Positions 1 through 19,877 of a stretch of DNA of 20,000 nucleotides are shown piece by piece (within the stretch, counting starts at the first letter, position 1; every line of letters starts with the position of its first letter). A program made the translations under genes and the position numbers. The stretch comes from an uncultured virus (IMG/VR IMGVR_UViG_3300046517_001837) (lineage: Duplodnaviria; Heunggongvirae; Uroviricota; Caudoviricetes). The notes under the pieces are model-generated. The model saw nothing but the letters and a program-made list of their open reading frames with translations, searched no databases and was not told where the DNA came from. The DNA is taken from IMG/VR virus record IMGVR_UViG_3300046517_001837. The stretch is one strand, 5' to 3'.

Positions 1-2098
1 TCACGAAGATCCCGAGCGCTTCGAGCGCGTCAGAGTTGGCGTCGAGGCTTCCCGTGTAGCTCGCGATCCGCTGGCGCTCGGGGTCGTCGGTGCTCAGGAG
101 CCCGGACAAAAAGCCGTCGGAGCTCACGTAGCAGGCGTCGCGCCGAGAATCGGTCATGAGCTTTTTCACGAACGGCACGAGCCCGCGCGCCAAGCTGTCT
201 TGGATGAAGTCGGCCATCTTGCGGCGCGCCTGCGTCTTGCGGCCGTTGATCGAGCTGGTCGTGACGCCGCTCTGGAAGACCATGCCCGCCGTGCGGTCGA
301 GCCGCGGCGCGCAGATCCCCGAGGCCTTCAGGTCGGCGTAGTCGGTCGCCGTAAGCACGGTGCCGCCGGCCAAGGTTTCGATGGCGAAAAAGTTCGTCAG
401 CAGCTGGGTTGCCTGACCCGCGTTCTCTTCGGGCGGCAAGAGCGCCGAGACCTTCGCCAGGCCCGCATGGGCGCGCAGCGTCACGATCCCGGAGTCGTTG
501 AAGCCGAGGCCGCCAGAGACGCCGCGTGCCTGGATCTCGGGGATCACCACCTGCCAGCCGGGCCAGGTGTACCAGACACGATCAGAGCGCAGCAGCGCGG
601 CGTCGACCTTGGCCTGCGCCTTGGTCAGCCCGAGCGCGCCAGAGCGCAAGAACTTGCGCCCCGCCGAGCCCGTATTGCTCGCGTCCTCTGCGTTGTCGGA
701 GGCGTAGGTGTCGATCGCGATCGAGCGGCGTGCGCTGTACAGGTAGTTGATGTCGATCGCTTCGTTCGTGGTGTCCTTGGTCTTGTCGAGCGCCGCCGTG
801 TAGCGCGCGTCGAGCTGACCTTCGGTGAGTGCAGCCGTGAGCGCCGCCGGGTTCGTGGCGCTCATCGTCGCAAAGCTCGGCTGATCGATCAGCACGTTGA
901 CGGCGTTCGCGCTCTGACCGACCGCGGTCCCGTCGTCGTACGCAGGGCGCACCTTGATCGAAAAGGGGCCGATGTTCGGCGCCGCGTTCGTGCCGGCCGC
1001 CACCGTGGTGGTGACCATCGTCACGAACTCGACCGCGCCAGACGTGCGGATGCGCGTGCCGGCCTTGATCGTGCCGCCGGCGTTCTCGCCCGCCTTGACG
1101 GTGGTCGCCGTGATCGTGATCCCGAGCGCCGTGGCCATCGCGCTCGCTGCGATCAGGATGGTGCCGGCGCCCGCGGTGCTGTCGTAGATGGACAGAAGCC
1201 CAGACGCGTCCACCAGCGCCTTGCCGTTGATCGAGGCGAGGCCCGCGGTGCCGTTGATGATCGTGGCCACCTCGGCCGCGGTCACCACCTGAAGATTGGC
1301 GACGTTGCCAGTGCCCGCCGTCGTGCCACCCGTCAGCTGCAAAACCGCCAGGACACCCGCGGTGCCATCGGCAAGCGTCAGGCTTCCGCCCGTGCCCTTC
1401 TGCAGACCCTTGATGGTGATCACGTTGGCAGCCTGCGTGGCGACGACGGCGCCGACCGCCGCATTGATGCGCGACACGACTGCGGCCGCCGTCTGATCGG
1501 AAGCTGCGAAGGTGACGACGATCATGGGCAGCGCGTCGATCGTGACGTTGAGCTTCTCGCCCCCGAGGAAGCCGGTACTGACGACCGCGCCGCCGCCCAC
1601 CCGCTGCGCCTCGGCCGCGGCAATCGCCGTCGAAGCCGTCGGGCCGCCCGTGCTGGTGGTCAGCGTGATTTGCTGGCCGACGATCAGGTTGTAGGGGCCC
1701 TTGGTTCCCTTGATGACCGCGAGCGGCGAGAAAGCGACCTCGCCGACGCTCGAGTCCACGCGTACGACCAGGAAGCGCGGCGCGCGAATGAACTTCGTGT
1801 AGAGGAAGCCGTTCCCGTTCCACACCTCGCCGTTGCGCTGGCGCGCGCACGGGTTGTTGCCGGTGATCCCGGCGTAGGTGTAACCGAGGGTTCCGAACTG
1901 GCGCGTGATGTCGCCGCCCTCGACCTCGGTGAGCACGCCGATCGGTCCGTCATCGAGCTCGCCCACCATGCAGACGACCCCGGTACCGATGCCCGTAATA
2001 CTGGCGCTCGGATCGAGATCTTCGACATACACGCCCTCAAGGGCGGTCATCTCTTCGATGGTGAAAACACGACGCGCGCGGAAAATGTAACCAGCCAT
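1..2098 (-). CDS. Contractile tail sheath protein, 3'-truncated by the window edge (699 codons in the window)
   Basis: Read manually because it is absent from the ORF track. ATG at 2098 follows a GGGGG SD, and the frame is open to position 2. N-term MAGYIFRARRVFTIEEMTALEGVYVEDLDPSASITGIGTGVVCMVGELDDGP...FG matches the sheath pattern (GVYVEE..I.G..T...GP...FG). C-term QARRKMADFIQDSLARGLVPFVKKL matches the sheath RR..D.I..S motif. It follows the neck/terminator genes. Confidence 0.85.
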   Translation of the reverse strand, partial: MAGYIFRARRVFTIEEMTALEGVYVEDLDPSASITGIGTGVVCMVGELDDGPIGVLTEVEGGDITRQFGTLGYTYAGITGNNPCARQRNGEVWNGNGFLYTKFIRAPRFLVVRVDSSVGEVAFSPLAVIKGTKGPYNLIVGQQITLTTSTGGPTASTAIAAAEAQRVGGGAVVSTGFLGGEKLNVTIDALPMIVVTFAASDQTAAAVVSRINAAVGAVVATQAANVITIKGLQKGTGGSLTLADGTAGVLAVLQLTGGTTAGTGNVANLQVVTAAEVATIINGTAGLASINGKALVDASGLLSIYDSTAGAGTILIAASAMATALGITITATTVKAGENAGGTIKAGTRIRTSGAVEFVTMVTTTVAAGTNAAPNIGPFSIKVRPAYDDGTAVGQSANAVNVLIDQPSFATMSATNPAALTAALTEGQLDARYTAALDKTKDTTNEAIDINYLYSARRSIAIDTYASDNAEDASNTGSAGRKFLRSGALGLTKAQAKVDAALLRSDRVWYTWPGWQVVIPEIQARGVSGGLGFNDSGIVTLRAHAGLAKVSALLPPEENAGQATQLLTNFFAIETLAGGTVLTATDYADLKASGICAPRLDRTAGMVFQSGVTTSSINGRKTQARRKMADFIQDSLARGLVPFVKKLMTDSRRDACYVSSDGFLSGLLSTDDPERQRIASYTGSLDANSDALEALGIFV

Positions 2099-2172: not shown

Positions 2173-2853
2173 CTAGCCCTGCGAGCTCGTGAGGGTGTGG
2201 ACTGCGCGCGGCCAGAAGTGCCGCCCCGCCCTCATCTCGAGCATGGGCGCGTCCCACGTCACGAGCGCGCGCAGCTCCCATTCATTCGTATAGGCCTTGG
2301 CCGGGATGTTGACGCGCTGCGCTGGCTGCTTGAGCGTGAAGCGCCCTGTCGCGCAGGCATAGATCTCGGGCAGGCGCAGCAGCACCCCGCGCACCTCACG
2401 CGGATTGAAGATCCACGAGAGCGCCGTCGCCATGGCGTCGCGCAGGGGCTTCGAGTCGGCCCAGAAGCTGACCTGAAACACACCCTGGGCGTCCCCGAGA
2501 TTCCAAATTACCGTGCCGCGCGCTTCGTCCCACGTATCTTCGAGCGCGTGCGGCAGAGCCTCGCTGAGGGCCGCGTCCGAACGCGGGAAGATGGACGCCG
2601 ACGGGTAGAGCAGCTTCTGTTGGGCGGTGGGGTAGTCGTCGAGCACGTCCAGCAGGGTGACTTCCCGATTTCGCGGCCGATCCTGTGCCGGGTCAGCCGG
2701 CTCGCCGCCCCAGACCGAGAACGTCTGACAGCGCAGATAGGCTTCGAGCGCCATCGCGCACGCTTTCTCGGCGTCGATCTGCACGCTGAGGCTATCGATG
2801 TGCGGCGCGGCCGCGTCCCCTTCCTTGCCGATCACGACGTCACCAGTAGCCAT
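2173..2853 (-). CDS. Probable tail terminator/tail completion protein (226 aa)
   Basis: Position between the HK97-gp10-like gene and the sheath; YPSASI and FQVSFWADSKPLRDAM segments resemble tail-terminator-type proteins. The function call rests mainly on synteny. Confidence 0.55.
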   Translation of the reverse strand: MATGDVVIGKEGDAAAPHIDSLSVQIDAEKACAMALEAYLRCQTFSVWGGEPADPAQDRPRNREVTLLDVLDDYPTAQQKLLYPSASIFPRSDAALSEALPHALEDTWDEARGTVIWNLGDAQGVFQVSFWADSKPLRDAMATALSWIFNPREVRGVLLRLPEIYACATGRFTLKQPAQRVNIPAKAYTNEWELRALVTWDAPMLEMRAGRHFWPRAVHTLTSSQG

Positions 2854-2858
2854 GCGAG

Positions 2859-3359
2859 CTAGCGTGACCCGCGCGCGCGCTCGGCCGCCATCTTTTTGAG
2901 CGACTTACGGATCTCACTATCGAGCACGCGGTTTTTCTTCCAGCGGCGCAGCGCGCGCGAAAAGTAGCGCTTGGGCGCGATCCCATGCTGCTGGATGCTG
3001 CGCCGCACCGCCCACGCCATCGCTACGGGGTCGGTGGCGCCCTTGCGCGTGGCCCAGGCGATCAAGGGCTCGATCGGGGGCGTAAACGGCCGCGTGCCGC
3101 CTTCCATCATGGCCGCGTAGGGCGCGCCCATCGTCACGAAGGCGCCCGTCTTCAGATAGATCACGCCGACGCTGTTGCGCATGATTCCGCGGTCAACGAC
3201 GGGGTAAGGCTCGTTTTCCGAGATCTCTTCGACCACGTAACCCTTGAGGCGCTCGGCGGCGCGCCGGCTCGCAATGACCGCGGCGTGCTGAAGGTCGGCC
3301 GGCAGGCGCTGCACGAGCCCCACGAACTGCGAGATCGTGACCTTGCGCCGCTGCCCCAT
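2859..3359 (-). CDS. HK97-gp10-like neck/tail completion protein (166 aa)
   Basis: Motifs PVVDRGIMRNSV, APYAAMMEGGTRP, PPIEPLIAWA, SIQQHGIAPKRYF. Start reassigned to ATG 3359, immediately after the upstream stop. Confidence 0.75.
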   Translation of the reverse strand: MGQRRKVTISQFVGLVQRLPADLQHAAVIASRRAAERLKGYVVEEISENEPYPVVDRGIMRNSVGVIYLKTGAFVTMGAPYAAMMEGGTRPFTPPIEPLIAWATRKGATDPVAMAWAVRRSIQQHGIAPKRYFSRALRRWKKNRVLDSEIRKSLKKMAAERARGSR

Positions 3360-3361
3360 AG

Positions 3362-3769
3362 CTAGACGGTATGCGTGCCTTCGACGCCTCGTGCCTCGCG
3401 CGCGCGCGTACGGTCGTGCAGCCGGCGCAGCGCGGCCTCGGTGCACTCAAGCGCCTCGGCATTCTCCTGGCACGCGTAGGGGCTGCTCTGGAAGCCGCGC
3501 AGGCGGTCCGCCACGATGGCGAGCAGCACTTCATTCGTGATGCCGTTGACGCCCACTTCCTTGATTGGCCCGTTCTGGAAGCAGATCAGCGTGCAGACCA
3601 GCGACGGGGTGCCTTCGGGGGCATCGGGGGGCGCGATCGAACCCGGTGGGCCTTGATACAGGATCGTGTAGACGTGGCTCGCGTTCCCGTTCTTGGGGTT
3701 GCGCTCGTCAGCCTCGATCGTGATCTCATGGTTCGCTGCGTTGATTTGGTGCTCGGTGATCTCTGGCAT
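3362..3769 (-). CDS. tad1: Tad1-family (Thoeris anti-defence 1) cyclic-nucleotide sponge-like protein (135 aa)
   Basis: FQNGPIKEVGVNGITNEVLLAIVADRLRGFQSSPYACQENAEA...RTRAREARGVEGTH matches, from recall, the Tad1 signature FQxGPIKExGVNGxxNExL...RL..FQ...CRENxxA...RT..RE.RGVEGTH. It has its own SD (GAAGGA). Confidence 0.88.
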   Translation of the reverse strand: MPEITEHQINAANHEITIEADERNPKNGNASHVYTILYQGPPGSIAPPDAPEGTPSLVCTLICFQNGPIKEVGVNGITNEVLLAIVADRLRGFQSSPYACQENAEALECTEAALRRLHDRTRAREARGVEGTHTV

Positions 3770-3795
3770 GGCGTGTCCTTCGCTTCGCTGGGGAT

Positions 3796-4353
3796 TCAGC
3801 GTTGGCCAGGGTACATCACCGCACCCGATCGATCCCGCCCCTGCGCGAGCTCGGTCAGCGTCACCTTCCAGTCGAACTGTTCGGGGCGCCGCACGGGCAT
3901 GTCCTCGACCACGAACGGGCGCCGATCAGTCTTGCCGTCGCGCGCGTCGACAAACACTTCGATGAAGCCCTCTTCATTGGGAGGCAGCGGACGCCGGTGG
4001 AAGAGGTCGAGGATCTCATCCTCCGTCAGCTGAGGGTTGAGCTCGGTCAGCACCACCACGCCGCGCTCGACGTAGCCGCCGTCGCGCAGCTGGCGCTGCA
4101 CCTTGGGCTCGACCTTCGGCCGTGGCAGAAACTCGCGCTCCCAGACGCGCGTCACGTCGCCGCGCCCCGCCTGGTTGCCGTTCCAGCGCAGGCGCACCGA
4201 GAGCACGCGATAGGGACGCATTCCCAACGTCGTGTTGAGCTCGCGCGCGCTGTTCACCGTGCTCGCAAGCTGCTCGGCCAGCGAGCACGGGCCCGGGTCG
4301 ACTACGACCGGCACAGCGGGAAGCAAGAGCCGCGGATTTCCGCTGTTATCCAC
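3796..4353 (-). CDS. Probable head-closure/head-completion protein (185 aa)
   Basis: Start reassigned to GTG 4353, with an AGGGGG SD overlapping the upstream stop. Neck-module position; beta-rich ending FDWKVTL. Confidence 0.5.
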   Translation of the reverse strand: MDNSGNPRLLLPAVPVVVDPGPCSLAEQLASTVNSARELNTTLGMRPYRVLSVRLRWNGNQAGRGDVTRVWEREFLPRPKVEPKVQRQLRDGGYVERGVVVLTELNPQLTEDEILDLFHRRPLPPNEEGFIEVFVDARDGKTDRRPFVVEDMPVRRPEQFDWKVTLTELAQGRDRSGAVMYPGQR

Positions 4354-4363
4354 AGCATGCCCC

Positions 4364-4816
4364 CTAGGTGTTGGTAACGCGCATGCCGCCGTTGAAGGTC
4401 TGGCTATTCGGGTTCGGGAACACGCCCAGATCATCGGCGAGGATGCTGATCAAACGCCGACGCTCGGCCAGCAGCTTCGTGCGCCCGAGGCGCGCGTCGA
4501 AGGTAATGCCGCCCGTGCTGGTGACGCCGCCCCGCTTGTTGTCGGAGCGGATCAGGCACTCGACCTCATCCAAGTCGCACAGGTCTCGGCGCACCTGGTT
4601 ACGCCCATCGGGGCTCAGACGCTTGAAGGCATCCTCGGTCACGTAGAGCGGCTGAATGGCCGCCGGGTAGCCGAAGGCAATCGCGGGCGCGAGCGCAAAC
4701 CAGCGCGGGTAGCCTAGGAAGTGCAAGATCTTGGTCTTTTCCTCTTCGGAAAAGCCTCCGACGCTCAGCGCTTTCGCGAGTGCGGTCTCTTCTTGCTCGA
4801 GCGATGCATCCGCCAC
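4364..4816 (-). CDS. Probable head-tail adaptor (neck 1) protein (150 aa)
   Basis: Helical N-term FSEEEKTKILHFLGYP, then a short GGITFD strand; first neck gene downstream of the capsid. Confidence 0.55.
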   Translation of the reverse strand: MADASLEQEETALAKALSVGGFSEEEKTKILHFLGYPRWFALAPAIAFGYPAAIQPLYVTEDAFKRLSPDGRNQVRRDLCDLDEVECLIRSDNKRGGVTSTGGITFDARLGRTKLLAERRRLISILADDLGVFPNPNSQTFNGGMRVTNT

Positions 4817-5714: not shown

Positions 5715-7094
5715 TTAGCCCGCGTGCTCGATAACCAGCGCGCGCTTGAACATCGCGCCGTTGCCGGAAAGCAAGTCCGTGGGCACCGCGAATCCGCCCG
5801 ACCACGACCACGCGTGATCGACGATCTGCTGCAGCACATCGAGCGGCGCGCGGATGGTGTACCGAATGCGATCGGTCAGCACCGTCACGCCGTTGTTCGT
5901 CACCTGGAAGTTGCCCACCTTGCCCATGATCCCTGCCTCGGTGATGTAGTCGGACTCGGGGATGTAGTGCTCGTAGATCGAGCCACCACCCGTGATGATC
6001 GTGCGGCCGATCGGCGTGCCGCCGTCGTTGATGACTTCCGCGCCGATGTACGGGGCCGCGCGCGCGCTGCCCGAGGGCTCAGCGAACAGGGTCCCGACGT
6101 TGAACTGATTCGGGCACTCCGTGTTGCTGTAGAAGTAGCAAGCGAAGTTGGCGCCGATGGCCATCGACCGGTAGGGCATCGCGTCCGGGATCGATTGGTA
6201 GATGCGCTGCCATGCGTTGTCCTGCATGAGCTGCGCCTCACCCGCTTGCGGGATATGCACGTGATACATGCCGTCCGCGTGCGGGGGCACGTTCTGCGAG
6301 CGCAGCAGCGCCACCGCCTGGGTGATGTCGTTGAGCGTGAGCAGCGAAGTGCCCGAGAGCGCGTCCACCGTCGCCACGTTGCCGGCGCGCAGGATGCGCG
6401 CGCGCTGAAGTGCGCGCACGCGCGAGCGCGCCGCCAAGTTGGCGCCCAGGTTCGCAGACAGGGTCAGCGTGCCGGGGCCGTTCGGGAAGTCGGTGTTGTC
6501 GGGAGTCGCCGCCACCACGTTGGCCGCGATATTGGTGTTTCCGAGCTCGACCGCGATGGGGGCCGCGGGCGAGACGGGCACCAGCTGGCCGAGCAGCACG
6601 CGCTGCCGGAAGCCGTTGATGCTCGCGACCCGGATCGCTGCCGTGCCGCTGCTGGCCAGCACCATCGACATGGTGTCGCCAGACAGATAGGCGGTGAAGA
6701 GCTCGTTCCGCGTGACGCGGTTCATGGTGTCGCCCGCGAGCTCGCCCAGCTTCTGGGTGTCCTGCGAGAACTTGCTGGCGATCTGCACGCGGCTCTGCGG
6801 CATGTAGGTCTGCATGCCGTCGCCGCGCTGCACGGCCTCGACGCGCCATTGCTCCGTGCCGTAGGTGCGTACCGTCGGGTCCTGGCCGGGCGTGAGCGGC
6901 GTCATGTTGGGTTCCATGCGGCCCGTACGCGTGAAGATCTGCGCTTCGCCGATGTTGGCCGCCCAGCGGAAGGACTCGACGTCGGCGCGGAAGAGCAGCC
7001 GCGGGTAGAGCGCTTCGTAAAACGTACGCACCAGGGCGTTCTGCTGGATGATATTCGCGAGCTCGGGTCGAAACCCTACGAGTGAAACAGTCAT
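5715..7094 (-). CDS. Major capsid protein, probably HK97-fold of N4-gp56/DUF4043-like type (459 aa)
   Basis: Directly after the scaffold, with a GGAGG SD. Motifs IGEAQIFTR, TPLTPGQDP, LGELAGDTMNRVTRN, LTLNDITQAVALLRSQNVPP..DGMYHVHI, PLDVLQQ..DHAW are typical of this capsid class. Confidence 0.88.
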   Translation of the reverse strand: MTVSLVGFRPELANIIQQNALVRTFYEALYPRLLFRADVESFRWAANIGEAQIFTRTGRMEPNMTPLTPGQDPTVRTYGTEQWRVEAVQRGDGMQTYMPQSRVQIASKFSQDTQKLGELAGDTMNRVTRNELFTAYLSGDTMSMVLASSGTAAIRVASINGFRQRVLLGQLVPVSPAAPIAVELGNTNIAANVVAATPDNTDFPNGPGTLTLSANLGANLAARSRVRALQRARILRAGNVATVDALSGTSLLTLNDITQAVALLRSQNVPPHADGMYHVHIPQAGEAQLMQDNAWQRIYQSIPDAMPYRSMAIGANFACYFYSNTECPNQFNVGTLFAEPSGSARAAPYIGAEVINDGGTPIGRTIITGGGSIYEHYIPESDYITEAGIMGKVGNFQVTNNGVTVLTDRIRYTIRAPLDVLQQIVDHAWSWSGGFAVPTDLLSGNGAMFKRALVIEHAG

Positions 7095-7255: not shown

Positions 7256-7310
7256 CTCACCCGTTACCCCAAAGAGCCCACCCAGGGCGCCTCAGCACGC
7301 TTGCAGCCTA

Positions 7311-10426: not shown

Positions 10427-10705
10427 TCAATGGAAGATGTCGCGAAAGAAGCGCGATACCAGCCCGTGAAGAACTGACAGGAACTCTGACCAGCTGAGCC
10501 TGCACCCCGCGCGCCGCCCGTGGACGTGGCTGAAGTCGATCGTTCCTTCGCCATCGCCCTTCGGGAAAGCCCATATGATCACCACGCGCTCACCCTCGCG
10601 CAGCGCCTTTTCGAAGTCGGCGCGCAAGCTGGCTTCGTCGCCGTCGCCGTCCTCATCCTTTTGCCAGGGGCGATCTTCCGGCTTTAGCTCGCGGAGATTC
10701 GTCAC
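10427..10705 (-). CDS. Hypothetical protein (92 aa)
   Basis: GTG 10705 overlaps the methyltransferase stop (GTGA). Corresponds to the 3' part of track ORF 10427..11065. Confidence 0.6.
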   Translation of the reverse strand: MTNLRELKPEDRPWQKDEDGDGDEASLRADFEKALREGERVVIIWAFPKGDGEGTIDFSHVHGRRAGCRLSWSEFLSVLHGLVSRFFRDIFH

Positions 10706-11328
10706 AGCAGCATCCCTTGCGCGAGCTGGCCGCGCGCGAGCTCGCAATACGCCGGGTTGATGTCCCAGCCTTCCGCGTCTCGGTGGTGGTTCTTGGCGGC
10801 TACGAGCGTGGTGCCCGAGCCGCAGAATGGATCCAGCACAAGCTCGCCCGGCAGCGAAAACCAGCGCACGAGCCAGCGCACGTGGCCGATCGAGCGCGGG
10901 CATGGGTGCCCGATCCGGCCTCGACCCATGCGGCCACCGTCGATCGTCTTGCCGGGCACAACGCGTGTTCCCTCGGGATAGCGCTCGCGCCCGTAGACAT
11001 AGGCGAGATCGCTGCCCACAAGCACCGTGCCGCGCTTCGACGGTACGTAGTACTCGAGCCAGCACGTGCGCCAGAAAGGCCAGTAGCTGGGCACTGCGCT
11101 GAGAAAGCGCGGATCAGTGCCGCACCCGACGTGCAGCACGACGTGCGAGACCTTTCCCACCAGGTGACCAAGCGTGTCGTGTAGGAGCTTGCCGGCGTCC
11201 ACGCCTGGAAAGAACTTGGCGCCGCGGTTCGGCCACACGGGATCGGTGATCACCACCGTCGGCTGCGTGGGCTGGAAGGCGCGCGCGAGCTCGATCGCGT
11301 CGCCGCACACGACGGTTTGCCCGCTCAT
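10702..11328 (-). CDS. DNA N4-cytosine/N6-adenine methyltransferase, beta-class-like, orphan (208 aa)
   Basis: VVCGDAIE, motif-IV variant VVITDPVW, HPCPRS, SAM-binding LVLDPFCGSGTTLVAA, and GWDINPAYCELA. Confidence 0.85.
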   Translation of the reverse strand: MSGQTVVCGDAIELARAFQPTQPTVVITDPVWPNRGAKFFPGVDAGKLLHDTLGHLVGKVSHVVLHVGCGTDPRFLSAVPSYWPFWRTCWLEYYVPSKRGTVLVGSDLAYVYGRERYPEGTRVVPGKTIDGGRMGRGRIGHPCPRSIGHVRWLVRWFSLPGELVLDPFCGSGTTLVAAKNHHRDAEGWDINPAYCELARGQLAQGMLL

Positions 11329-14656: not shown

Positions 14657-16279
14657 TTACTCGTCGCCGTCTTTGTCGTCGCCGCCGGCGCCCTCGATGC
14701 CCACCTGGGTTTTGAGCGCCTCGGCCGTGCGCTCTGCATCCTTGTCGGCGTCTGCTTCGATCTCTTGCAACTCGAGATCGGTGTCGACCACGCCGAAGAG
14801 GTGCCCCACGTAATCGACGCCGCTCTTTTGGCTGAGCAGCGGCTTTCCGCCCGTGGCCGCTTGCGCGATCGACACCGTGTCTTTCACGTCCTGGCTTGTG
14901 GGCTGGAAGTACGGGGGCCACTTGAGCGTGACCGACTCGACCTCGCCCGGGTCGAGATCCGGGGTCAGCGTCTCTTTGTGCTCCATGACGACGGCGCCCA
15001 TGTCGTTCATGATCTGCAGCGCCGGCTTCGCACGCACCTTGCGCGCGACCTTGAGCACATCCTCAAGGATGCGCGTCAACGTGCTGCCGTATTGCGGGCG
15101 CAGCCGATTGCAGCGGGCGATCATGGGCGCGTATTGAAGCCGCTTGGCGGCCGCGCTCTGCGCCATCCCGCTCTTGGCCTCTTCGTCACGCGGGCGCACC
15201 ACCTGGCACTCTTCGAGGATCGACACGCGTAGCTCGCTCATGAGCTCGAGCGCGGCCTTCACGCTGCCGCCCGCGAGCTCTAGGAACTCGGCGCCGCCCG
15301 GCGAGTGGATCACCGCGCCCGACCCCTTCGTCACCGGCTGCTCGTCGTCTTCGCTCTTGATCACCAGCGTGGGGTCGACGTTGAAGGTGGTCCCTTTGGT
15401 CGTCGCGCTCAGCAGGCGGTTGTATTCGTCGAACTTGTCTTCTAGGCCCTCGTAGTCGCCGTCGCCGTCTTCCTCTTCGGAGTTGGGCAAGTTCTGCGTC
15501 CAGTAAAACGGGCAGAAGCCAAAGCCGTGATCGCCGACGAACGAGGGCGCGATCTTGTCCATCCAGTCGGGTTGCTCAGCGAGCTCGGCCGGCACGGCTT
15601 CCCACGTGATGTCGACCGACATATCCCAATAGCGGACATACCAGAAGTCTTTGACCTTCCGCTCACCGCCTTCGAACACGGGCTTCTTGAACAGGTAGGC
15701 CTTGAGCACGCGCGCGGGCAGCAGCTTCTGCCGGTTCGCCCACTCGAGCACCGTGCAGTGCTTGGCGTTGTGGACGTCCACCGCAAAGGCGTTCGCGATC
15801 ACGCCCAGGCTCAGGCAGGCGGTGCCATGCTGGCCCCCGTTGTCGCGCGCCTCGCCCATCTTCTGCGGCAACAGCATGAGCTTTGACCACTCACGCAGCG
15901 CCTTCTGCGCCGCGTCGTCGCCATCGACGTTGATCTCGGGGAAGGCGTCGCCGTCGACCGACATCTCGGTCAGGCTCGCCGTCACCAGGCGCGCGAAGCG
16001 CTTGCGCGTGCTCGGCCGCCGGCGGTCGAGCGACACGTAAAAGCCAGGCGCCATCGGCAACGGCTCAAGGCCGCCCATGCCGCGCGGCGAGCCGTTCCAG
16101 TCGTAGCGCTTGCCATCGTCCTGCGTGCCCCTGAAGTATTGCTCGAGCCGGTCCATGTAAAAGAACCGGTCGTTCTCGCAAAGCTTGCGCAGCGGCACGC
16201 GTGGCAGGAGCATCAGGGCCACTGACGCCATCGTGGAAGCCGGCGCGGGTGGCACGGTCGGAACGAGCGCTACGGACAC
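14657..16279 (-). CDS. Portal protein, SPP1-gp6-like (540 aa)
   Basis: Size and position before MuF. Motifs RLEQYFRG, HGFGFCPFYWTQN..DGDGDYEGL..KFDEYNRLLS, AQSAAAKRLQYAPM, VTLKWPPYFQP, ELQEIEAD plus an acidic tail. Start codon uncertain. Confidence 0.82.
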   Translation of the reverse strand: MSVALVPTVPPAPASTMASVALMLLPRVPLRKLCENDRFFYMDRLEQYFRGTQDDGKRYDWNGSPRGMGGLEPLPMAPGFYVSLDRRRPSTRKRFARLVTASLTEMSVDGDAFPEINVDGDDAAQKALREWSKLMLLPQKMGEARDNGGQHGTACLSLGVIANAFAVDVHNAKHCTVLEWANRQKLLPARVLKAYLFKKPVFEGGERKVKDFWYVRYWDMSVDITWEAVPAELAEQPDWMDKIAPSFVGDHGFGFCPFYWTQNLPNSEEEDGDGDYEGLEDKFDEYNRLLSATTKGTTFNVDPTLVIKSEDDEQPVTKGSGAVIHSPGGAEFLELAGGSVKAALELMSELRVSILEECQVVRPRDEEAKSGMAQSAAAKRLQYAPMIARCNRLRPQYGSTLTRILEDVLKVARKVRAKPALQIMNDMGAVVMEHKETLTPDLDPGEVESVTLKWPPYFQPTSQDVKDTVSIAQAATGGKPLLSQKSGVDYVGHLFGVVDTDLELQEIEADADKDAERTAEALKTQVGIEGAGGDDKDGDE

Positions 16280-18363: not shown

Positions 18364-19122
18364 TCAGGGTGTGATGCCGGTGTCTGCCAGGATCCAGGTT
18401 TGCTGCGCCGCGCGCTCTGCGGGACCGAGGTAGTCACCCAGGACAAGCGCCCTGTACCTGAACGCGGCCAGGTTTGCACCGTTTGACTGGCCGCCTAGGG
18501 AAAGGGTGTTGGCCGGCGCTGCGCCGCTGGGCGCTGTCGTGCTGGTGATGCTCACCGCAAGCGCGCTCTTGATGTACACGGCAGCCCCGGGCGAGATCCC
18601 GAGCCTGTACGACACCAGGTAGTAGGTGGCGACGTTCTGCACCTGAGCGACGCCGATACTGACGAACGCGCCCGCGGCATTGGAGACGTACAGACCCACG
18701 TTTCCCGCGCCGGCAACGTCGAATGCCAGGCCCACGCCAATCGTGGCCCCCACCGTGCGCGTGCAGACGGGCCTGCCGCCGGCCGCGGTGTTCGTCGGCG
18801 TGCACACCAGCAGGATCGAGCCGCCGTTTCCATCGTGCTCGAAGGTGTAGTAAGCGGCCGGCTTGTTGCTGACGTAGTATTCCGCGCCGGTGAAGGTTGC
18901 GCAGAGCTTGCCGCCGAAGTCCGCGTGCGCCGCCGGCACCACCACTTGGTTCGAGTTGGAGGCCTGCACGAGCTGGTGCGCCGCGTCGTTGTAGTCGATC
19001 CACGCGCTCACCTTCCCCGTGATGCCGTCCACCGCGTAGTAGTCCGCCACGAACACCGGACGGTTGAGCGCGACCGTGAGCACGTCGCCGAATGGGGTGA
19101 TCGGGTTTCGGTCGAAGTTCAT
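18364..19122 (-). CDS. LamG/ConA-like beta-sandwich protein, paralog A; possible tail/receptor-binding protein (252 aa)
   Basis: GKVSAWID..HQLVQAS...P...FGGK.CATFTG N-terminal pattern, TLSLGG, and a C-terminal helix ERAAQQTWILADTGI resemble phage LamG-like proteins. Confidence 0.6.
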   Translation of the reverse strand: MNFDRNPITPFGDVLTVALNRPVFVADYYAVDGITGKVSAWIDYNDAAHQLVQASNSNQVVVPAAHADFGGKLCATFTGAEYYVSNKPAAYYTFEHDGNGGSILLVCTPTNTAAGGRPVCTRTVGATIGVGLAFDVAGAGNVGLYVSNAAGAFVSIGVAQVQNVATYYLVSYRLGISPGAAVYIKSALAVSITSTTAPSGAAPANTLSLGGQSNGANLAAFRYRALVLGDYLGPAERAAQQTWILADTGITP

Positions 19123-19823
19123 GGCGCGATCCCTGTGTCCTGCTGGATGTAGCTATATACTGCCGCGTCCTCTTGAGCCCCGAGATCAGGTGTCACGATC
19201 AGGAGATGGCGCACACGCGCTTTCAGTGGCAGCGAATCGTTTGAACTGCGCGCGCCAAAGCTCAGCGAAGAAGAGGTGTTGATGTTGTTATTTAGAAGTG
19301 CGCCAGTCTCGGCCGCGATTCCGTTCTTTTTCATATAGCGCCGCGGGTCATATGCCGAGACTGCTACCACCACGCTGCCCGCGACATTGGTGGTGAACGC
19401 GGTTGAGACGCCAAGAAACGCTGACCCTCCCGAGCGAAAGAGAGCCCAGCGAACCACGTTCGTCGCCGATAGCTCATTTGTTGCGCCGCCGGAACCGGTG
19501 TTGTCGGTCTCCCAGATCAGCTGGGCCGCGCCCGCGGCGGTGACTGTCAGCGTTGAGTAGGCGCGACTCGGCCCGTTCACAAGATAGTTCCAAGACACCG
19601 CTGTGCGATTCGACTGATACCAGCGCGCAGCCGTGGCGCCGTCGAACGTTGCGCAGAGCTTGCCGCCGAAGTCCGCGTGCGCCGCCGGCACCGCCACCTG
19701 CCTGGCATTCAAGGTCTGCGCGAGCTGGTGCGTGACGTCGTTGTAGTCGATCCACGCGCTCACCTTCCCCGTGATGCCGTCCACCGCGTAGTAGTCCGCC
19801 ACGAACACCGGACGGTTGAGCGC
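18896..19823. repeat. Direct repeat blocks shared by paralogs A and B (offset 752 bp)
   Basis: 18896-18940 = 19648-19692 (45 bp identical) and 18984-19071 = 19736-19823 (88 bp identical), separated by a diverged 43-bp patch. Confidence 0.95.
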
Positions 19824-19877
19824 CATGATCAGGATCTGGCCGAAGATGCCGCGCGGGCTTCGGGTGCCGATGCTCAT
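19119..19877 (-). CDS. LamG/ConA-like protein, paralog B (252 aa)
   Basis: N-terminal ~75 aa nearly identical to paralog A; YMKKNG, LSFGARS, AVYSYIQQDTGI; ATGA overlaps on both sides. Confidence 0.6.
   Translation of the reverse strand: MSIGTRSPRGIFGQILIMALNRPVFVADYYAVDGITGKVSAWIDYNDVTHQLAQTLNARQVAVPAAHADFGGKLCATFDGATAARWYQSNRTAVSWNYLVNGPSRAYSTLTVTAAGAAQLIWETDNTGSGGATNELSATNVVRWALFRSGGSAFLGVSTAFTTNVAGSVVVAVSAYDPRRYMKKNGIAAETGALLNNNINTSSSLSFGARSSNDSLPLKARVRHLLIVTPDLGAQEDAAVYSYIQQDTGIAP

Follow-up and report, generated by a model that had tools for sequence, protein, structure and literature searches.

Tad1 is a family of sponges for gcADPR, and some of its members also bind cyclic trinucleotides. 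According to the available excerpts of Li et al. (10.1101/2023.11.15.567273), R90 and T97 of CbTad1 contact the phosphates of the cyclic trinucleotide, mutants of the Tad1 dimer-dimer interface became dimers and lost trinucleotide binding, R90A or T97A mutants retained gcADPR binding, and substitutions at the trinucleotide site occur in only 6% of Tad1. In the accessible part of Hadary et al. (PMC12393519, Table S2; 20 Tad1 cloned), plaque assays validated 12 of 18 Tad1 rows as active on type I Thoeris, and 6 were negative. By eye, the homologues #49, #50, #65 and #67 of that table, which block type I Thoeris, have neither the R nor the T that contacts the trinucleotide, and the plaque-validated #49 also lacks the W that completes the triad (R90, T97 and W105 in CbTad1). 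Homologue #56, with the full triad, is entered there as giving no type I Thoeris inhibition; together with the 6 negatives among 18, this indicates that sequence does not guarantee Tad1 activity.

Tad1 has also been found in virions. The phiKZ protein gp184 is a Tad1 and a minor capsid protein that is injected (10.1101/2025.11.23.690004, PMC11297242, PMC10449902, PMC13282480; excerpts). On the defense side, the available text of PMC12578639 describes sensing of the major capsid protein by Thoeris, for staphylococcal and streptococcal systems only, and other excerpted sources report that types V and VI Thoeris are likewise blocked by Tad1 and that type II Panoptes is restrained by a cA3 decoy (PMC13712596).

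We analyzed a stretch of 20,000 nucleotides (the window), which is C1:46655-66654 of a virus record of 66,654 bases (65.6% GC). Genes of the window and record include portal, MuF-like, capsid, sheath-like, tape-measure-like, baseplate and terminase genes. The gene of interest and its ribosome-binding motif are as follows.

3362..3769, minus strand: tad1 homologue encoding P0002 (135 aa), from the open reading frame and from sequence, profile and fold matches
3776..3780, minus strand: Shine-Dalgarno-like motif AAGGA, 6 nt before the tad1 ATG and within the 26-nt spacer, read directly

The gene ends in TAG, and the ATG of the following HK97-gp10-like gene lies exactly 2 nt on, the distance given in an earlier sequence-only reading of this DNA. 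The plus-strand frame across 3362-3769 is open and has no start codon; we rejected it as the gene.

P0002 is a Tad1 homologue by sequence and fold. A phmmer search of PDB sequences returned seven matches, namely six Tad1 chains and phiKZ gp184, with E values of 1.4e-17 for CmTad1 (8kbb), 2.4e-16 for gp184 and about 6e-9 for CbTad1, and P0002 matched the family profile PHROG 2428 (E 3.6e-31). The predicted structure (pLDDT 94.7) has the Tad1 architecture, an N-terminal antiparallel beta-sheet followed by two long C-terminal helices. Tad1 structures were present in every Foldseek match listed at E < 0.001 (E 2e-9 to 6e-7, TM 0.64-0.76), and VIA aligned the model to CbTad1 with Z 13.6 and an rmsd of 2.4 Å over 122 residues, compared with Z 7.5 for the best unrelated fold. 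These matches are far above chance, and both the modeling against Tad1 structures and the family profile thus bear out the Tad1-like identity claimed in the sequence-only reading. Its statement that the characterized members come from Firmicutes-type phages is contradicted by gp184 and by the Leptolyngbya, Opitutaceae and Acinetobacter homologues among those tested in the available part of Leavitt et al. (10.1101/2022.05.03.490397). True homologues made up 1877 of 1922 candidate proteins, and an identical P0002 protein is present in three other contigs.

To compare individual positions, residues were mapped from phmmer alignments, with CbTad1 numbering inferred to be shifted by 1 and CmTad1 numbering by 10, and residue roles were taken from the accessible parts of Leavitt et al. 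(10.1101/2022.05.03.490397) and Li et al. (10.1101/2023.11.15.567273). In the gcADPR pocket, CbTad1 G55, R78, F82, N92, R109, R113 and G120 correspond to P0002 G67, R89, F93, N103, R120, R124 and G131, all identical, and CbTad1 H29 is likely the counterpart of P0002 H32, an assignment made from conservation among 120 homologues and not from a printed alignment. All of these P0002 residues are conserved in 119-120 of the 120 closest homologues. CbTad1 F87 and R57 are replaced by Y98 and I69, both states as in CmTad1, and N122 is replaced by H133, the majority residue here (105 of 120 homologues). Judged by these residues, the gcADPR pocket of P0002 is predicted to be canonical and unchanged, and residual cyclic-dinucleotide binding in it is possible. 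A two-copy model of P0002 scored 0.81, compared with 0.00 for the best of three controls, and passed a homodimer mark that 20 of 30 solved homodimers attain, as does 1 of 23 monomers, although this pass may arise from the likeness of P0002 to solved Tad1 structures. Contacts in the model agreed to at least 97%, with pLDDT at least 84. The model suggests that P0002 forms a head-to-tail dimer with two gcADPR pockets.

The second set of published positions lies on the following feature.

3413..3469, minus strand: helix alpha2 face, residues 101-119, from the alignment and published residue roles

Here the hexamer and cyclic-trinucleotide positions are replaced in P0002 (Q101, E108, C109, A112, R115, R116 and D119). 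CbTad1 R90, T97 and W105 have become Q101, E108 and R116, and the CmTad1 dimer-dimer residues R88, T95, K96, Q98, E99, M102, W103 and K106 read Q, E, C, E, A, R, R and D, so that none of the 8 interface residues is identical. The motif LRRL, which the sequence-only reading had set against LxWL in characterized members, covers residues 114-117; LxWL is right for CbTad1 and CmTad1, but among the 120 closest homologues no more than 50 have the W. Combined with the published mutant data, the residue mapping places LRRL on the hexamer face, outside the gcADPR pocket, and because the equivalents of R90, T97 and W105 are replaced, LRRL predicts a dimeric sponge without a cA3 pocket and not a new ligand. 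We infer that the hexamer and the cA3/cAAG pocket are absent from P0002. Instead of the altered ligand specificity proposed earlier, the substitutions more likely mean that the hexamer and the cyclic-trinucleotide pocket have been lost and the gcADPR pocket is intact. P0002 belongs to the Tad1 family and not to its hexameric dual-pocket type (Cb, Cm, SBS and Coli), with sponge activity predicted from its residues.

This pattern is shared by other homologues. R, T/S and an aromatic residue were all kept in 42, all missing in 54 and mixed in 24 of the 120 best homologues, where the triad-less share is biased upward because the query itself is triad-less. Strong covariation links the three positions (R-W table 43/1/7/69 among the 120 homologues, uncorrected for kinship), and on a poorly resolved tree built without the triad columns the triad state changes 21 times (shuffled mean 35, minimum 28), which suggests that the triad was lost or exchanged repeatedly. 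P0003, the closest homologue (68%), has kept it. At its curated cut-off of 27 bits, the Pfam model PF24729 (Acb2_Tad1_hairpin) did not match P0002; of five proteins run against it, two with R/T/W matched (25 and 27.6 bits) and three without R/W did not.

The heavily altered alpha2 face and the unmatched Pfam hairpin model could also mean that P0002 is a decayed or structurally co-opted Tad1 whose signal binding is gone. We consider this very improbable: the frame is intact and preceded by a ribosome-binding motif, the pocket is complete, the same protein recurs in the three other contigs, the triad-less pattern is that of the 54 homologues above, and 40 related neck modules do without Tad1.

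The sequence-only reading had also singled out a Pro-rich insert, which is indeed present at residues 40-56.

3581..3667, minus strand: variable region between Y34 and F64 (residues 35-63, 29 aa), from the homologue alignment and the model
3602-3652, minus strand: Pro-rich stretch GPPGSIAPPDAPEGTPS, residues 40-56, from the translation

The Y34-F64 interval spans 12-48 aa in the 120 homologues (median 21), compared with 29 aa in P0002; 11 of them have a loop as long or longer. Six prolines are at the high end, with more in 2 of the 120, and P0003 has a similar Pro-rich loop. We dropped the idea that the insert is special, given this range of lengths and the resemblance to P0003, and read it as ordinary loop variation on the basis of the alignment.

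For the host, alignment of the capsid protein against prokaryote genomes gave a single match (51% identity), on a 66-kb contig in a Deltaproteobacteria metagenome-assembled genome (MAG) of 10.1 Mb, the size and GC of which we take to suit a myxobacterium. This MAG has a ThsB_TIR match over the cut-off and no match to Tad1, and its capsid-bearing contig could be a mis-binned phage. The related capsid gene in this one MAG hints faintly at a myxobacterial host. Capsid matches among cultured phages were rejected as a guide, being only 28-31% identical and pointing to unrelated hosts.

It is conceivable in this setting that the substitutions and the Pro-rich loop retune P0002 to another signal, for example one from a myxobacterial TIR system, for which the MAG with its ThsB-type TIR match is the nearest host clue. 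In the excerpts of Li et al. (10.1101/2023.11.15.567273), the range of cyclic dinucleotides bound by other Tad1 is determined by loops surrounding the pocket. We nevertheless regard such retuning as quite improbable, since every pocket position of P0002 is canonical, the insert falls in the beta3-beta4 region, outside the four pocket loops named in the available text of Leavitt et al. (10.1101/2022.05.03.490397), and SBSphiJ7 Tad1 still binds gcADPR with a longer loop (about 38 aa, counted by eye, versus 29 in P0002). The genomic setting of tad1 involves the following neighbors.

5715..7094, minus strand: major capsid protein, in an operon shared with tad1 and proposed to trigger Thoeris, from phrog_1357 (E 1e-14) and annotated capsid matches
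4364..4816, minus strand: head-tail adaptor, judged solely by position; lies upstream of the closure gene and is conserved in relatives
3796..4353, minus strand: head-closure (stopper)-like neck gene with a likely GTG start at 4353, from fold matches to phage neck chains
2859..3359, minus strand: HK97-gp10-like neck gene, its ATG 2 nt past the tad1 stop, from an Atlas feature score of 0.96 and TM 0.75
2173..2853, minus strand: tail terminator, judged solely by position; precedes the sheath and is conserved in relatives
2..2095, minus strand: tail sheath running off the window, from Pfam Gp18_domIII_N (E 0.004, under the cut-off), position and conservation

The feature score and TM value agree with the HK97-gp10-like downstream neighbor named in the sequence-only reading. 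Its head-closure-like upstream neighbor fits the neck and stopper fold matches, but the exact name is not fixed: the model (pLDDT 88.6) gave best E values of 2.5e-4 and 3.2e-4 to phage neck/stopper chains at a query TM of only 0.32-0.34, and the best matches were neck/stopper chains of NF5, Pam3, phiCD508, Pa193, E217 and T1 mixed with tail-tube chains. By sequence, this gene had no PHROG or PDB match, and neither the adaptor-position nor the terminator-position gene matched a Pfam or PHROG family.

The tad1 gene lies on the same strand as its neighbors, with spacers of 26 nt before and 2 nt after it. Its codon use resembles theirs (GC3 0.84, codon index 0.67), and we found no sign in these values of a recent foreign gene. 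A minus-strand scan placed terminator-like sites at 7258, 5599 and, weakly, 4967; the stretch from the closure gene to the sheath contained none. A sigma-70 promoter scan, which is blind to phage promoters, found none, so that an internal early promoter for tad1 is possible. With such short spacers and no strong terminator, late co-expression of tad1 with the virion genes is plausible.

Several other features of the record were observed. Two adjacent paralogues of 252 aa each (window 18364-19122 and 19119-19877, minus strand) are 43% identical overall and near-identical over their N-terminal 60 residues, and match no Pfam or PHROG family. The terminase large subunit gene (G000:C1:5268-6980, minus strand) is at the opposite end of the record from the portal gene (window 14657-16279), and if the genome is circular, many small genes separate the two. 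There are two DNA methyltransferase genes, at window 10702-11328 (minus strand), inside the head module between the MuF and capsid genes, and at G000:C1:24927-25709 (minus strand). Outside the window, two small minus-strand ORFs, G000:C1:13876-14154 (phrog_11049/872) and C1:4297-4563 (phrog_419, weak PGDYG match), had no PDB sequence match; we take them to look Tad2-like, in which case sponges of more than one family may be encoded by this phage.

To place the tad1 insertion, we compared related loci from capsid-anchored searches. Of the 90 scanned, many ended short of the neck; 40 non-redundant loci had both closure and gp10 genes. The closure-gp10 gap was -12 to +30 nt in 39 of these 40 neck modules, compared with 443 nt in the window; the remaining locus (L162) has gp10 and closure in swapped order. 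A Tad1 profile matched nothing in any of the 90 loci, and tad1 at the closure-gp10 junction was seen only in the window phage and three near-identical contigs. Inserts of more than 200 nt occurred at the adaptor-closure junction, one upstream of the tad1 site, in 25 of 40 relatives, and one junction downstream of closure-gp10 in 8 of 36, with mixed cargo. By eye, the cargo at the adaptor-closure hot spot (L101, L103, L121, L133, L177 and others) comprises lipoprotein-, methyltransferase- and HNH-like and very basic ORFs. Together, the closed junction of the relatives, their lack of Tad1 and the cargo nearby mark tad1 as an accessory gene in a cargo-tolerant module, at a junction otherwise shut. 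It is cargo and not a neck component; the notion that Tad1 belongs to the neck machinery in this phage family fails on its absence from related modules and on the abutting closure and gp10 genes.

Because the module often takes unrelated cargo, the position of tad1 may be neutral. P0002 could then be a working gcADPR sponge that landed here by accident, its timing unselected or set by its own promoter. The miscellaneous inserts at both neighboring junctions, the restriction of this insertion to the window phage and its near-identical contigs, and the 22 of 51 Tad1 loci elsewhere that lie among replication or other named genes favor such an accident. Against it, the closure-gp10 junction is unbroken in nearly all relatives, the insert is trimmed to its short spacers with the codon use of its neighbors, and the 26-nt spacer is hardly long enough to hold a promoter that does not extend into the upstream gene. 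We consider an accidental position a real but minority prospect, and favor expression with the late operon.

The wider family provides a further comparison. From 77 other viral Tad1 loci, 51 were left after removing duplicates and those with a flank below 2.5 kb, and up to three ORFs of at least 90 aa per side (247 proteins) were compared with PHROG, a scan that misses divergent genes and missed the window's own neck genes. Virion or packaging genes lay on both sides in 8 of 51 loci (one via a portal match), a raw count and not a measure of enrichment. One locus was borderline, 15 had such genes on one side (several apparently kin), 22 were among replication or other named genes and 5 had unnamed surroundings. 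With 8 of 51 loci inside morphogenesis operons, the neck-operon setting is less special than the sequence-only reading held. We rejected loss of R/T/W as a mark of Tad1 in structural operons, the triad being kept in 14 of 24 structural-context and 7 of 22 other loci (p = 0.085; 5 unnamed loci excluded, kinship uncorrected). Among six small or mid-sized cultured-phage loci, none had Tad1 in a structural module, and one excluded 150-kb phage was likewise non-structural. A literature search, with subscription journals largely outside its coverage, found no paper on Tad1 in late operons.

Individual loci vary in arrangement. L061 5956-6276 encodes a triad-less 106-aa Tad1 of another subfamily, flanked by a neck gene and a sheath-like one; it is among the 8 loci with virion or packaging genes on both sides and is an independent case of Tad1 in the neck region. 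Tad1 lies between the portal and major capsid genes in L009, L016, L017 and L051 and between the terminase and portal genes in L007, L035 and L045. It is fused behind a small domain resembling the ORF C1:4297-4563 in L026 (5692-6372), and behind other small domains in L048 (5683-6225), presumably Tad2-like, and L009 (5680-6381), which is unnamed.

A neck-operon site could also serve assembly-time loading of the sponge into the virion for delivery at the next infection, as for phiKZ gp184, which the available excerpts describe as validated for injection and which likewise lacks R, T and W (having E, N and A). The Tad1 homologue orf166 of Bc431v3 was listed in purified virions at 39% coverage in the accessible part of PMC3601020, Lactococcus phage 1706 orf71 is labeled "structural protein" by annotation only, and the 8 of 51 loci flanked by virion or packaging genes point the same way. 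However, the N-terminal extension of gp184, about 110 aa long, is missing from P0002 (P0002 residue 16 aligns with gp184 residue 115), and the Bc431v3 and 1706 Tad1 genes adjoin replication genes, so that position does not predict packaging. The same part of PMC3601020 also lists an amidase in the Bc431v3 virions at 87% coverage, making carry-over possible. By analogy with the known virion-borne Tad1, packaging of P0002 is possible, but we think it rather unlikely as the explanation of the site.

Our preferred interpretation, held as probable but well short of certain, is that a Tad1-family gene sits between two neck genes and encodes a likely dimeric sponge for gcADPR and not for trinucleotides, likely expressed late with the capsid. 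In this scheme tad1 would be read with the late operon, co-transcribed and translationally coupled with head, neck and tail genes, so that the sponge would accumulate as the capsid protein does; the capsid protein would set off Thoeris, and the two pockets of the P0002 dimer would hold the gcADPR, the cA3 pocket having probably been given up. Anti-defense genes are usually sought in early accessory regions. Tad1 in head or neck operons instead suggests an antidote timed to its trigger, because Thoeris can sense capsid protein. As speculation, escape from type II Panoptes might have been the selective reason for losing the cA3 pocket. A broader idea, which we rate as improbable, is of a widespread dimer-only Tad1 that has repeatedly shed the hexamer and cA3 pocket and been repeatedly wired into head and neck operons, made with its capsid trigger and carried onward in virions. 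If true, this dimer-only subtype would absorb the gcADPR of Thoeris and leave type II Panoptes untriggered. A Tad1 that naturally lacks the trinucleotide pocket also lends itself to testing whether sponges become narrower in range to evade decoy defenses such as Panoptes.

Compared with the known systems, P0002 resembles CmTad1 (PDB 8KBB-8KBD) and CbTad1 (7UAV, 7UAW, 8SMD, 8KBE-8KBH) in fold and gcADPR pocket, and their head-to-tail dimer is predicted for it. CmTad1 and CbTad1 are, in the published excerpts, hexamers with two extra trinucleotide pockets, whereas the P0002 residues for these are replaced, and unlike theirs the loop before F64 is Pro-rich. The founding member, SBSphiJ7 Tad1, is of the same family, has the same pocket motifs and carries a long insert in the equivalent loop, but it keeps R, T and W and binds cA3/cAAG according to the available text of Li et al. 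(10.1101/2023.11.15.567273), and P0002 has lost the triad. Homologues #49, #50, #65 and #67 have, like P0002, canonical pocket motifs and no R and T at the trinucleotide site; unlike P0002, three of them keep W, and the seven systems assayed, in the accessible part of that study, included no trinucleotide system. The Tad1 core of phiKZ gp184 is 34% identical to P0002 over 119 columns, and both lack R, T and W; gp184 carries a long N-terminal extension, is cut by the head protease and is present in virions, as its excerpted sources describe, whereas P0002 has no extension. The Tad1 family, its ligand and the virion delivery of the phiKZ protein are already known, and P0002 is a variant of this known family.
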